From positions 51,251 through 71,250 of the IMG/VR virus record IMGVR_UViG_3300035670_000158: a DNA stretch of 20,000 nt, one strand, 5' to 3'. Below the pieces are notes generated by a model. It was given only the letters and a program-made list of their open reading frames with translations, was not told the DNA's origin and did no database searches. The DNA is from an uncultured virus (IMG/VR IMGVR_UViG_3300035670_000158) (taxonomy: Duplodnaviria > Heunggongvirae > Uroviricota > Caudoviricetes). Positions 5,881 through 12,671 of this stretch are shown in pieces. Each line of letters begins with the position of its first letter. The first letter of the stretch is position 1. Made by a program: the position numbers and the translations under genes.

Positions 5881-6228
5881 ATGCGCCCACAATCAGCAAA
5901 AGCAAAAGGTCGCCGCCTTCAGCAGTGGGTAAGAGATAAACTGGTAGAGTGTCTTCATATTCATCCAGAAGACATTGAGTCTCGTAGCATGGGAGCAGGC
6001 GGTGAAGACCTTATTATGGCTAGAGCAGCCAGGTCAAAGTTTCCCCATAGTATTGAATGTAAGAATGTTGAAAAACTAAATATCTGGGATGCCTATGAGC
6101 AAGCATCTGCCAACTGTGGTGATTACGAACCTATCGTTGTGATGAAAAAGAACGGAAAGAAACCATTGGTTGTAGTGGACGCAGAGTATTACATTCAACT
6201 ATTCGGAGACAAAGATGGCACGAATTGA
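5881..6228 (+). CDS. PD-(D/E)XK nuclease, Holliday-junction resolvase-like
   Basis: SAKAKGRRLQ...GEDL...IECKN motif order typical of Hjc-like phage nucleases. Confidence 0.75.
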   Translation: MRPQSAKAKGRRLQQWVRDKLVECLHIHPEDIESRSMGAGGEDLIMARAARSKFPHSIECKNVEKLNIWDAYEQASANCGDYEPIVVMKKNGKKPLVVVDAEYYIQLFGDKDGTN

Positions 6229-6919
6229 TCTTCATAACTTTTTTAAACATTACGACGAAAACAATCCAAAGCATGTAGAAGCTGTTAGATATTTTGAGGA
6301 TGCTCTTAATAAAAAAGCACCAGAAGAAATGGAAGATTCTTCTGGGTGGGTTGTGACATATAGAAGTCAACCAAACAAACCAAAATCAAATATTCTTGAT
6401 GTGCCTTTCTTTCCACAGACAGACAATTATAGAGATGCTAATCGCACCTGTAATTCATCTGCCTGTGCCATGGTGTTAGAATACTTCAAACCAGGCACAC
6501 TCAAAGGAGCAAAAGGCGACGACGCTTATGTTCAAAAAGTCTTTTCAATCGGGGATACCACAGATCACTTGGTTCAAACTCGTGCTCTTGCGTCTTATGG
6601 AATTAAGTCAAGTTTCAGTTATTCCCTTACTTTTGCTGATCTTGATAGAGAGCTTGCCGCTGGCAGACCTGTTGTTATTGGCATTCTTCATAGGGGCACT
6701 CTATCTAATCCGACAGGAGGACATATGTTAGTTGTCATTGGCAAAACGCCATCAGGTGATTACATTGTTAACGACCCCTATGGTAGTCTCAATGACGGTT
6801 ACACCAGTGCCGTAAGCAACGGTAAGGGTGCAGTGTATAAGCGTAGTGTGTTGGCACGTAGATGGTGCCCAGCTGGCAATGATGGATGGGGTAGAATCTT
6901 TGATGCAAAAAAGGCGTAA
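6215..6919 (+). CDS. C39-like cysteine peptidase (putative cell-wall hydrolase)
   Basis: VPFFPQTDN...RTCNSSACAM (Cys), GGHMLVVIG (His), VNDPYG (Asp). Confidence 0.85.
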   Translation: MARIDLHNFFKHYDENNPKHVEAVRYFEDALNKKAPEEMEDSSGWVVTYRSQPNKPKSNILDVPFFPQTDNYRDANRTCNSSACAMVLEYFKPGTLKGAKGDDAYVQKVFSIGDTTDHLVQTRALASYGIKSSFSYSLTFADLDRELAAGRPVVIGILHRGTLSNPTGGHMLVVIGKTPSGDYIVNDPYGSLNDGYTSAVSNGKGAVYKRSVLARRWCPAGNDGWGRIFDAKKA

Positions 6920-6959: not shown

Positions 6960-7395
6960 GATCAAAGAGTTTGAAGGATGCCATCTTTCAGCATACCCAG
7001 ACCCATTTACAGGAAATCTTCCCATCACCATAGGTTGGGGAAGCACCAGAGACTTCAACGGCAAACCATTCAAACTTGGTGATAAGATTTCACAAAAGGT
7101 TGCTGATGATTTGCTCATCAGTCAAATCAAGCGGGAGTTTATTCCTGCCCTGTCTAAGATACCTTACTGGAGTGAAATGAATGACAATCAACGAGGAGCA
7201 CTTTTATCATTTGCTTACAATCTCGGTGCTCGCTTTTACAATTCAAGCAATTTCAATACTATTTCTCGCAATTTGCGTGAGAAAAATTGGGCAGCAATCC
7301 CAAAAACATTAGAGATGTATCGCAATCCTGGTAGCAGTGTAGAGGCAGGATTGCTCAGAAGAAGAAAGGCAGAGGGTAAACTTTGGATAAGTTAA
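6913..7395 (+). CDS. GH24 (phage lysozyme) domain in the -1 frame, probably fused to the C39 peptidase
   Basis: GLELIKEFEGCHLSAYPDPFTGNLPITIGWG (E-x8-D...T), QRGALLSFAYNLG, GLLRRRKAEGKLW; in-frame TGA at 6901-6903 and no ATG/GTG/TTG before the catalytic Glu. Confidence 0.85.
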   Translation, partial: GVSSTLDGIPVKGLELIKEFEGCHLSAYPDPFTGNLPITIGWGSTRDFNGKPFKLGDKISQKVADDLLISQIKREFIPALSKIPYWSEMNDNQRGALLSFAYNLGARFYNSSNFNTISRNLREKNWAAIPKTLEMYRNPGSSVEAGLLRRRKAEGKLWIS

Positions 7396-7813: not shown

Positions 7814-8176
7814 ATGCTTTTCAAATCACTTTCAATTCTCGCCATTGCCGCTGCAGGACTAGCACCCCTTCAGGCAAAGGCAGCGAGCGGATGTTCCCTC
7901 GCATCACATTATGGAGTCGGTGATGGATATCATGGGCAGACAACTGCAAATGGTGAAAGATATAACGCTTATGGAAAATCAGTAGCACATAAATGGCTTC
8001 CTTTTGGAACCAGATTGAGAGTTACAAATCAACGAAATGGTAAGTCAGTAATTGTGCGTGTAAATGATCGCGGTCCCTACGTTGGTGGGAGAGACCTTGA
8101 CTTGTCTTATGGTGCGTTCTCTTCTATTGCTCACCCAGGTCAAGGCGTTACTAGCGTCTGTTATTCAAGGGTCTAA
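7814..8176 (+). CDS. rlpA: RlpA-like lytic transglycosylase (DPBB domain) with signal peptide
   Basis: ASHYG...TANGERY...AHKWLPFGT...VRVNDRGPY...DLDLS; hydrophobic N-terminus ending AKA. Confidence 0.9.
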   Translation: MLFKSLSILAIAAAGLAPLQAKAASGCSLASHYGVGDGYHGQTTANGERYNAYGKSVAHKWLPFGTRLRVTNQRNGKSVIVRVNDRGPYVGGRDLDLSYGAFSSIAHPGQGVTSVCYSRV

Positions 8177-8806: not shown

Positions 8807-8835
8807 TTGACAATCAAACCTAAATGGTTTATGAT
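8807..8835 (+). promoter_or_regulatory. sigma70-type promoter inside an inverted repeat
   Basis: TTGACA 8807-8812, 17 nt, TATGAT 8830-8835; GACAATCA/TGATTGTC arms. Confidence 0.7.
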
Positions 8836-8889
8836 TGTCTTATATCAAAAGGTATGATATAATAAATAAATATATTATACCTTAAGATT

Positions 8890-9243
8890 ATGCCATATAA
8901 AAACAAAGAGGACTATAAAAACTGGGAAAAGAGATATCGTAACGAATATTATCAAAGACCAGAAACAAAACAAAGATTGTCAGAGCAATCTAAGTTGCGT
9001 AGAGAACGAAATAAAAGTTTTGTTCTAGATAAAATGATTCCTTGTATTGTATGTGGTGAGAGTGACCCTATTGTTATTGATTTTCACCATTTAGATGAAT
9101 CTCAAAAAGATAAAGGAATTTCTCAAATGATGCAAAGTAATTATTCTTTGCAAAAAATACAAGAAGAACTTGACAAATGTGTTTGTTTATGTTCTAATTG
9201 TCATAGGAGAGTTCACGCAGGAACTCTTACTTTGCGGGTATAG
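8890..9243 (+). CDS. HNH endonuclease (putative free-standing homing endonuclease)
   Basis: CIVCG...DFHHLD...CVCLCSNCHRRVH; upstream hairpin 8849-8883 with AATAAATA in the loop region. Confidence 0.88.
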   Translation: MPYKNKEDYKNWEKRYRNEYYQRPETKQRLSEQSKLRRERNKSFVLDKMIPCIVCGESDPIVIDFHHLDESQKDKGISQMMQSNYSLQKIQEELDKCVCLCSNCHRRVHAGTLTLRV

Positions 9244-9304
9244 TTTAGGGGTAAAATGCCATCCTTCCAAGTTGGAGTCACCGGTTCGATTCCGGTTACC
9301 CGCT
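9234..9304 (+). tRNA. tRNA-Gly(TCC)
   Basis: Acceptor GCGGGTA/TACCCGC, loop CTTCCAA, T-arm ACCGG-TTCGATT-CCGGT. Confidence 0.9.
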
Positions 9305-9326
9305 CTGAACCTTTGGGTTCTTAAAA

Positions 9327-9432
9327 TGTGGTTCTGGGTGGAATTCCCAGCGGTTCCGTTAGGGACTGTCCTTTGTAGGTTCGATACCTACATCTTCCTT
9401 ATGGGAGATAAGAACGGCTATTGGAAACCACA
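9327..9432 (+). ncRNA. unassigned multibranch structured RNA with T-loop hairpin
   Basis: Closing stem TGTGGTT/AACCACA, four internal hairpins including TGTAGG-TTCGATA-CCTACA. Confidence 0.6.
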
Positions 9433-9433
9433 A

Positions 9434-9505
9434 CCTCTGGTAGTCTATTGGTAAGGACAGGCAGACAATGCACTTGGATACTAGGTTCGATTCCTAGACA
9501 GAGGA
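9434..9505 (+). ncRNA. tRNA-like RNA lacking a canonical anticodon stem
   Basis: Acceptor CCTCTG/CAGAGG, D-arm GTCT-ATTGGTAA-GGAC, T-arm CTAGG-TTCGATT-CCTAG; anticodon-arm positions do not pair. Confidence 0.65.
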
Positions 9506-10671: not shown

Positions 10672-11061
10672 ATGCCATACAAGGATATAAAAAAGCAAAG
10701 AGAAGCGCAGCGACTCTGGGCTGAAAAACAATCTAGTGAGTTTAAAAAGGTAAAATACCAACGAGAACAAAACCACAAAAAGTTGATGGTTGAAAAACTA
10801 AATCAACTAAAATTAGAAAAAGGTTGTTGCGAATTGTGTGGTGAGTATCATCCACCATGTTGTTTTGATTTTCATCATTTGGACAAAACAACTAAATCAA
10901 AAGAAGTATCTCAGTTAGCTGCAAAAGGATACAAATGGGACACAATCTTGACTGAAGTTGAGAAGTGTGTTATGCTATGTGCTCCATGTCATCGTAAGAT
11001 ACATGCGGGACTGCTAACAATCTTGGAGAGTCAATCCGATTGGCGACGGAACCTGTCTTGA
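10672..11061 (+). CDS. HNH endonuclease (putative free-standing homing endonuclease)
   Basis: CELCG...DFHHLD...CVMLCAPCHRKIH; similar to 8890..9243; hairpin 10633-10660 and TAAATA motifs upstream. Confidence 0.88.
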   Translation: MPYKDIKKQREAQRLWAEKQSSEFKKVKYQREQNHKKLMVEKLNQLKLEKGCCELCGEYHPPCCFDFHHLDKTTKSKEVSQLAAKGYKWDTILTEVEKCVMLCAPCHRKIHAGLLTILESQSDWRRNLS

Positions 11062-12036: not shown

Positions 12037-12210
12037 ATGGTAACTTCAAAGTCAACAACTGGATCGTTCACATCTGAAATTGAAAAGAGACTACAATCTC
12101 TTGAAGAAAAAGCACATGCTCCCTGTGGTGGTGCTTCTGTTCCTGCAGATTTAGCTGCTAAGTTTGAAGAACTTTGGGGTTGGTATCAATCCGTAAAATC
12201 AAAAGTTTGA
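12037..12210 (+). CDS. small hypothetical protein (57 aa, not in ORF track)
   Basis: MVTSKSTTGSFTSEIEKRLQSLEEKAHAPCGG...KSKV*; late promoter AATAAATA at 12005-12012. Confidence 0.7.
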   Translation: MVTSKSTTGSFTSEIEKRLQSLEEKAHAPCGGASVPADLAAKFEELWGWYQSVKSKV

Positions 12211-12330
12211 TTTCTTATTTTTTCAAAATAAGTGGCGCGTCTGATTTCCTAGTTTGGCAAACTAGGTGGTGGAGTCAATGACCCAAAGACACGGATGGTC
12301 TATAACAGCACTGGTCGGGAGAACCCCCCT
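12209..12330 (+). ncRNA. structured RNA, two TTTC-hairpin-GTGGYG units (wcaG/manA-like)
   Basis: CTTATTTT/AAAATAAG then TGGCG; CCTAGTTT/AAACTAGG then TGGTG. Confidence 0.5.
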
Positions 12331-12331
12331 T

Positions 12332-12559
12332 ATGGCAAAGTCTAATGTATTTCGATACATTGGTAACTTTCTTCTCCTAGCAGGATACTTTTTTCTGCTC
12401 TGGGGAGATATGAAGATTGGATTATTTGTAAAATGTATAGGAAACATATTTGTTGTTCCTTTTGCAATCAAATATAAGTTTTGGGACATTCTTTTTTTAT
12501 GTGGGTTTTATGCCGCGATAGAAGTTCCAAAACTAATTCAATTACTGATTGTTAAATAG
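12332..12559 (+). CDS. small multi-TM membrane protein
   Basis: MAKSNVFRYIGNFLLLAGYFFLLWG...; three hydrophobic segments; ATG 12332 preferred over upstream GTG. Confidence 0.7.
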   Translation: MAKSNVFRYIGNFLLLAGYFFLLWGDMKIGLFVKCIGNIFVVPFAIKYKFWDILFLCGFYAAIEVPKLIQLLIVK

Positions 12560-12649
12560 TTTCCAATTTTTCTCAAAAATTGGTGGTGCGGATGGGGAAT
12601 TCTTTCTCCGCCTAGTTTCTTGGTTCTAGTCAAAAACCAAGTGGCGAGC
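12559..12649 (+). ncRNA. structured leader RNA upstream of the sugar operon (wcaG/manA-like)
   Basis: CCAATTTT/AAAATTGG-TGGTG, GCGGA...TCCGC stem, CTTGGTT/AACCAAG-TGGCG; family assignment from recall only. Confidence 0.55.
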
Positions 12650-12671
12650 ATATTAGTTTCTTGAGTATAAG

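Follow-up and report, generated by a model that had tools for sequence, protein, structure and literature searches.

The window, the whole 20,000-nt stretch of DNA analysed, belonged to a T4-like cyanophage and contained a primase, NrdA/B, an endolysin, a Dps-like protein, two HNH genes, a sugar-epimerase cluster, and a wcaG RNA. The source virus record was 71 kb with a completeness of 38%. The RNA under study (9327-9432) was located in a tRNA array between tRNA-Gly and a tRNA-like gene, the latter preceding tRNA-Val; the RNA, its parts, and its neighbours described below all lie on the + strand. The upstream neighbour, tRNA-Gly(UCC) (9234..9305), was followed by a 24-nt spacer with a small hairpin before the core of the RNA. 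The downstream tRNA-like gene (9434..9505), which was separate from the RNA, matched the Rfam tRNA model with 31.9 bits and received no ARAGORN call here. Both the letters and coordinates quoted for 9327-9432 in a preliminary description of this DNA and its account of tRNA or tRNA-like flanks were correct. The nearest upstream sigma-70-type promoter match (8807..8835; 11/12, a match to the consensus only) would place an HNH gene, tRNA-Gly, the RNA, and the tRNAs after it on one transcript.

The tRNA-like gene at 9434-9505 had normal D and T arms and an open acceptor, and its anticodon arm was a short hairpin with a GACAA loop. It was conserved, unannotated, in S-PM2, S-CREM1, S-RIM32, DSL-LC03, and S-RIM8, was named Leu or His by ARAGORN in some loci, and was covered by one RNA-run contig at a depth of 416. 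Elsewhere in the window, the frames of two related HNH genes (8890-9243 and 10672-11061) ended inside the next tRNA genes (Gly at 9234 and Ser at 11024, respectively). The DNA primase occupied two overlapping frames (75-479 and 466-1437) that matched consecutive parts of phrog_451 (5-128 and 130-461), which may reflect a split gene, a frameshift, or an assembly error. The endolysin-like protein also lay in two frames (6215-6919 and 7111-7395; phrog_3617 positions 2-235 and 312-404) and may represent an interrupted or a split gene. The segment 7678-7813 contained a strong sigma-70-type promoter and then a GC-rich, probably structured leader, which had no match in Rfam, before a lipoprotein-like gene at 7814. 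The wcaG RNA occurred at 12150-12246 and 12555-12655, ahead of the sugar-epimerase cluster; one copy was strong (94 bits), and the second, which lay upstream of it, was weak (24.6 bits).

The segment 9327-9432 had a minimum free energy of -40.5 kcal/mol with a z score of -3.63, and none of 200 shuffled sequences folded equally well. Alignment of 58 distinct sequences defined a conserved core of about 100 nt (9330..9429), with an identity of 96% in the stems versus 59-73% in the flanks. The core was closed by the helix P1 (9330-9333/9426-9429), in which all four pairs showed two-sided changes and were 100% paired. P1 had been drawn with 7 bp; the inner 4 bp were conserved, and the outer three, extending to 9327/9432, were found in this genome only. 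Within P1 the RNA was composed of two tRNA-like heads, A and B. The T arm of head A (9334..9350), a hairpin that the preliminary description had already recognised, consisted of a 5-bp stem and a 7-nt loop (9339-9345) of the UGNAA T-loop type. The stem was 99.3% paired, with a change from U-A to C-G in 6 sequences, and the loop varied at positions 1, 3, and 6 only. It was followed by a sealed acceptor-like stem of 7 bp (9351..9368) with two-sided changes in 4/7 pairs and a variable loop of 2-5 nt; the loop was down to 2 nt in 6/58 rows, where the stem amounts to a 6-bp tetraloop hairpin.

Head B was reached through the helix Px (9369-9371/9423-9425), whose 5' strand together with a 3-nt connector to the T arm spanned 9369..9374 and whose 3' strand (9423..9425) was continuous with that of P1. 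Px showed a change from U-A to G-C in 5 sequences and from C-G to U-A in 1, with one mismatch in 174 cells; it is only 3 bp long and was broken in 1/58 rows. The T arm of head B (9375..9391) had a 5-bp stem and a canonical tRNA-type T-loop (9380-9386) with invariant C56, G57, and A58. Its sealed acceptor-like stem (9392..9409) had 7 bp, with two-sided changes in 4/7 pairs and a loop of 3-5 nt, or 9 nt in one member. These two hairpins had also been proposed before and were borne out, as were the two 7-nt loops of T-loop type and the tRNA-like character. P1, the first two hairpins, and Px joined without any unpaired base to form a perfect four-way junction, and the second junction beyond Px comprised 3 nt, the T arm, the acceptor-like hairpin, and 13 nt. 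Each half of the RNA was thus a tRNA top half, that is, a 5-bp stem with a 7-nt T-loop followed directly by a 7-bp loop-closed stem. This arrangement of two T-arm/acceptor units, each with a G3·U70 pair, had been missed in the preliminary description.

The six-helix model was 99.3% paired over 1798 cells of the 58 distinct sequences, although the mean pairwise identity of 89% (minimum 65%) means that the cells are not independent events. Two-sided compensatory changes occurred in 17/31 pairs and in every one of the six helices. Slid controls were 38-55% paired; these and the shuffle statistics ignore the kinship of the rows, and some columns were fixed by the search patterns. Unaided, RNAalifold on 47 distinct sequences returned P1 and four hairpins (5/6 helices), and Px emerged after 11 further rows were added. 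The loop indels were 1, 2, and 5 nt long, which argues against coding. The core is a conserved, self-contained RNA fold under selection.

The inner multibranch part had been drawn differently, with a stem CCGTT/AACGG and a hairpin AGGGA-CTG-TCCTT, and this did not hold. These stems were about 90% paired versus 99% for the alternative helices, and their variant pair types were kept in 7/18 cases, the chance level of 38%, versus 23/31 for the alternative helices (p 5e-5; chance 38%). The earlier fold was 4.8 kcal/mol less stable on this sequence, its full model was 92.4% paired versus 99.3% for the six-helix model over the 58 rows, and RNAalifold on the 47 sequences gave none of those inner stems. 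CCGTT was mostly inside a variable loop, and the data favoured the hairpin 9351-9368 and the helix 9369-9371/9423-9425. Further pairings were discarded as well. A majority C·A mismatch spoke against a long helix in which the linker would pair with 9347-9355, and variation across the alignment against the pairings GTTCT/AGAAC and TCCTT/AAGAA. Variation also ruled out a D stem, whose candidate was only 74% paired and likewise had a C·A mismatch in the majority of rows.

The 13-nt linker on the 3' side (9410..9422) was unpaired and was intact in 67/67 members retrieved by the 5' pattern; its AAGA and GCUA segments were invariant and had no Watson-Crick partner. The RG dinucleotide at 9416-9417 is likely the equivalent of G18/G19 of the tRNA D-loop, with a presumed tertiary role. 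In two related rows, counted as one event, G at 9416 was replaced by A together with a change from U to G at T-loop position 55. A swap from G18·U55 to A18·G55 is known from tRNA, and the co-change would fit such a swap. T-loop A lacked C56 and had no identified partner.

These loops also bear on a different reading, in which the tRNA likeness is ancestral only and the T-loops and linker form a new tertiary fold, e.g., interdigitated T-loops binding a tRNA elbow, a scaffold, or a ligand site. Paired T-loops serve tertiary folds in T-box RNAs, in RNase P, and in the FMN riboswitch. A fold of this kind would agree with the invariant linker segments and with T-loop A, whose sequence drifted away from the tRNA type to UGNAA on a stem that was retained. 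However, such a fold leaves unexplained why 7 bp and G3·U70 were kept in both stems while the loops varied freely, and T-loop B kept C56 and co-varied with the D-loop-like purine. We therefore regard the new fold as unlikely.

Both sealed stems began with the pairs G-C, G-C, G·U, and A-U. The wobble pair G3·U70 was represented by G9364·T9355 in head A (55/58 rows) and by G9405·T9396 in head B (53/58 rows). It was replaced by A3-U70 in 3 and 4 rows of the two heads, respectively, and by G-C once in 116 stems; each of the 47 rows checked had it in at least one head. Pairs 1-4 of head B were unchanged in 10/10 diverged members that were not pattern-fixed there, and pairs 5-7 varied. G3·U70 is the identity element read by alanyl-tRNA synthetase (AlaRS), which also charges minihelices. 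Among the 948 tRNAs of the fetched loci, the pair was present in 15/15 tRNA-Ala versus 8/933 others. Weighing against an alanine-specific reading, the probability that two stems would each gain a wobble at position 3 by chance was, by estimate, as high as about 1/49; single-position conservation is moderate evidence here, as the family is mostly closely related. Other features of an alanine acceptor were not matched: the fourth pair was A-U, where tmRNA and most tRNA-Ala have G-C, the discriminator position 73 was mostly G or U (A in 4 and 5 of 47 rows), and neither head had a CCA end.

Head A was scored against 915 tRNAs read in permuted order, from the T arm through the acceptor 3' strand to the nine bases at the tRNA 5' end (mean 15.3, sd 2.9). 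Cyanophage tRNA-Ile(UAU) matched at 29/33 positions and made up 13 of the top 15. The best match, in L137, came from a locus retrieved via the Dps gene and not via likeness to the RNA. A permuted tRNA-Ile(UAU) is therefore the likely parent of head A by sequence likeness. Because this likely parent has G3-C70, the wobble in head A would be derived. For head B, a tRNA-Ser(GCU)/tRNA-Ile(GAU) junction was the best of 237 tandem junctions (29-30/38; mean 19.7, sd 3.1), a comparison that gave no weight to loci picked by means of the T-arm pattern. A permuted tRNA-Val(UAC) fitted the head B stems about equally (26/33), so that both are candidate parents. Two other origins were rejected. In one, the first two hairpins were the anticodon and variable arms of tRNA-Ser, for which the topology fitted and the sequence did not, tRNA-Ile(UAU) being better; in the other, head A came from host tmRNA, which matched at 20/33 versus 29/33 for tRNA-Ile(UAU).

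The available text of PMC3978253 presents a model in which permuted RNA genes arise from tandem genes losing their outer parts. It also describes permuted tRNA genes, as they occur in archaea and in red and green algae, in which, as in the present RNA, the 3' part of the tRNA precedes the 5' part, and a common mode of origin from tandem tRNA genes losing outer segments is probable. Unlike those genes, the RNA is a bacterial-virus chimera of two tRNA top halves, without a decoding anticodon arm or a splice junction that would restore a cloverleaf.

A clear tRNA ancestry and HNH genes within the array are also what would be expected if the RNA were a functionless relic of fused tRNA genes that homing-endonuclease recombination had spread. 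Covariation makes this reading very improbable, as the compensatory changes lay in helices absent from any parent tRNA (P1, Px, and the sealed stems). Moreover, the RNA was present in one copy per genome in 15/15 records and in two phage groups.

The RNA was found in 82 IMG/VR records (union by contig name), many of them near-duplicates, and one record (L129) was identical to the window across the RNA. With two independent end patterns, 67/71 and 68/68 IMG/VR matches were true members, and a looser pattern, with 81 matches of which 6 were false, contributed 13 further, diverged records. In metagenomes, 57 loci were picked up, and 38 of them proved true. Searches for an isolated head A, or for one with a longer loop, retrieved full members (63/63) and no intermediate form, and three loose patterns gave mostly tRNAs or coding DNA among the matches listed. 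No match to the specific pattern was found in GTDB genomes, and BLAST against cultured phages gave a 25-nt chance match only, with a similar outcome for a diverged-member query. A model search of nine records (S-CBS2, S-CRES1, S-CRES3, PSS2, S-CREM1, S-PM2, DSL-LC03, S-RIM32, and T4) found no member; two weak matches in S-PM2 were a tRNA-Ser junction and a stretch folding unlike the RNA. Contigs from 4/4 freshwater RNA runs (24 runs listed, 20 recorded as RNA) spanned the RNA or most of it at a depth of 3-29, which gives no ends, strand, or level and, as DNA may be present, is not evidence of a discrete transcript.

Six diverged members formed a supported clade; their records measured 48-93 kb, and the four complete ones 72-93 kb. 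The one portal protein compared from this clade shared 67% identity with its counterpart in Synechococcus phage S-CBS2. The RNA is therefore common to T4-like cyanomyoviruses and S-CBS2-like siphoviruses, two unrelated cyanophage groups. An exact TATAAT was located 5-7 nt upstream of P1 in 4/6 members of the siphovirus clade. Across genomes, neighbours were exchanged freely on both sides while the boundaries stayed at P1. The distribution was patchy, with the RNA in 1/78 loci of relatives found via the neighbouring Dps gene. With the covariation, the sharp boundaries across many contexts, and the -10 box of the siphovirus clade, the earlier suggestion of a stand-alone phage noncoding RNA was upheld.

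These settings were also weighed against a role as a cis element of a polycistronic tRNA transcript, in which the RNA would serve RNase P or RNase Z as a cleavage site, or would act as a stabiliser that helps to release or protect its neighbours. In 66/68 viral loci, tRNA calls lay no further than 1.2 kb away and were all on the same strand, some of these calls falling on the tRNA-like neighbour gene, and the downstream RNA often began 3-4 nt past P1. However, the neighbours were freely exchanged, the siphoviruses had their own -10 box, two complete carrier genomes held only 2 tRNA genes, and most related arrays lacked the RNA, so that a cis role is improbable.

No family had been recognised in the RNA before, and this agreed with Rfam 15, in which the window and 7 diverged members had no match at the gathering threshold with E up to 5-10. 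One of the known RNAs closest in architecture was YrlA (RF02553), which according to the available part of PMC4201824 is likewise about 100 nt long, has paired ends and a circularly permuted tRNA-like module with a T arm followed by a loop-closed acceptor stem, and occurs in phages. The loop-closed T-arm/acceptor unit is present twice in the RNA versus one head in YrlA. The Ro-binding motif GNCGAAN0-1G, which the same partial text defines near the 5' end of YrlA, was absent from the 58-sequence alignment. There was no conserved D stem-loop of the YrlA type after the acceptor stem, the candidate being the 74% paired stem above. The RF02553 model with E up to 10 did not match the RNA and did match a tandem tRNA junction nearby. 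Furthermore, Ro60/TROVE (PF05731) was found in 0/5 and 0/11 carrier records, seven of which had a completeness of 90% or more, with positive control genomes, and RtcB was found in 0/5 complete carriers.

Among host RNAs, head B resembled the permuted tmRNA of picocyanobacteria in the order of T arm, acceptor 3' strand, insert, and acceptor 5' strand, in G3·U70, and in a stemless D region. The host tmRNA had the permuted order in 24/25 loci examined, with an insert of 7-40 nt. In contrast, the RNA had a length of 100 nt, inserts of 2-5 nt, no tag frame or pseudoknots, and a second head; its sequence matched host tmRNA at 20/33 and 17/33 positions, A73 was present in head B in 5/47 rows only, and neither ARAGORN nor Rfam called it a tmRNA. 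As for a tRNA, the sole candidate for an anticodon loop (Y32, U33, R37) had G33 and a pyrimidine at 37 in 58/58 rows, and tRNA-Sec scores were weak (14-19 bits versus a cut-off of 47). Judged from sequence, the RNA is neither a Y RNA, nor a tmRNA, nor a tRNA.

The tmRNA likeness raises the alternative that host RNase P and 3' trimming open head B or both heads, which receive CCA and alanine; the product would be a tmRNA-like acceptor in two or three pieces that has no tag frame. The combination of a 7-bp acceptor and a 5-bp T stem is the geometry of the Mycobacterium smegmatis YrlA that is cut by RNase P and gains CCA, as given in the available part of PMC4201824, and the available part of PMC3978253 includes an archaeal permuted tRNA with a 1-nt insert. 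Picocyanobacterial hosts already open a permuted tmRNA, the 13-nt stemless D region and 3-nt connector of head B compare with 12-13 and 3-4 nt in host tmRNA, and one member had the loop GCCA. Nevertheless, the loops were 2-5 nt in 57/58 rows, below any host insert seen, the position 73 residue was rarely A, and the tmRNA D-loop and connector sequences were not kept, nor were a tag frame and pseudoknots. Opening of the heads is accordingly doubtful.

Other small phage RNAs were compared in the same way. The T4 species 1 and 2 RNAs (rnaC/rnaD) are also small, stable, non-tRNA RNAs in a tRNA cluster beside a homing endonuclease gene, but rnaC has an open T-arm/acceptor end versus the sealed heads of the RNA. 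No match was found between the T4 cluster and genome and the RNA, or between the RNA and the rnaC/rnaD covariance models. The cyanophage manA, wcaG, abiF, and glnA RNAs (PMC9964418, in the part available) occupy the same neighbourhood in related phages and are different Rfam families, none of which matched 9327-9432. The available part of that paper, on S-CREM1, listed only these four and mentioned CfrI and PhotoRC-II. No description of the RNA was found in the literature covered; subscription papers and the supplements of RNA-motif surveys were outside that scope and could include it. A new RNA family within the tRNA-mimicking small RNAs, with two sealed top halves per molecule, is well supported.

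Without an anticodon and a free 3' end, the RNA can neither decode nor be charged as it is, and binding is therefore the simplest role. The shrinking of the head A loop to 2 nt favours staying sealed, and the alanine mark on both heads suggests a decoy for host tRNA-handling proteins. The best explanation, although we hold it at slightly less than even confidence, is a decoy that stands alone, cannot be charged, and engages host proteins reading the top halves of tRNA or tmRNA. Phage tRNAs as a decoy or supplement against tRNA-cleaving defences are discussed in the available text of PMC13096335. In myoviruses, the RNA would be released from a tRNA-array transcript, starting near 8840, by trimming of its neighbours; in siphoviruses, it would be made from its own promoter. 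The 13-nt linker might then dock its purines into the T-loops to give two elbow-like corners, and the resulting stable, non-chargeable RNA would act in trans, binding without turnover. The most plausible targets would be those that read the alanine mark, namely AlaRS, the tmRNA pathway, or a defence enzyme, whether nuclease or modifier, directed against tRNA-Ala or tmRNA.

A more specific form of the decoy is rather unlikely: two different tRNA ends that converged on the alanine mark would form a bivalent tRNA-Ala/tmRNA decoy titrating AlaRS, SmpB and trans-translation, or a tRNA-Ala/tmRNA-directed defence enzyme of picocyanobacteria. If true, the RNA would be an RNA-only agent of anti-defence or translation control common to unrelated cyanophage families. 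A decoy in the broader sense would already name a class of host targets, and it would mean that abundant freshwater viruses have a further, RNA-based way of countering defence or controlling translation. It would also bear on why phages carry tRNA arrays and on the role of the non-tRNA RNAs in them, a question since the T4 species 1 and 2 RNAs. The origin of the RNA can be traced to tRNA genes of the same arrays, and the model makes predictions on G3·U70, sealed versus opened ends, and the linker purines.

ARAGORN labelled the RNA as tRNA-Phe(GAA) in some genomes (L905 13521-13613, L909 10053-10145, and L363), and some phage tRNA-Phe annotations may thus be the two-headed RNA. Exchangeable RNA-like modules adjoined the RNA in related arrays (L516 1231-1500, L522, L520, and L002 2400-2500). 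The neighbouring modules included an abiF-like hairpin after tRNA-Asn, a two-hairpin module shared with S-PM2, and two further hairpin modules. In L567/L515, a complete genome of 250 kb with 2 tRNA calls, the RNA was followed by tRNA-like fragments and by a sequence that may resemble a group I intron in a tRNA gene.
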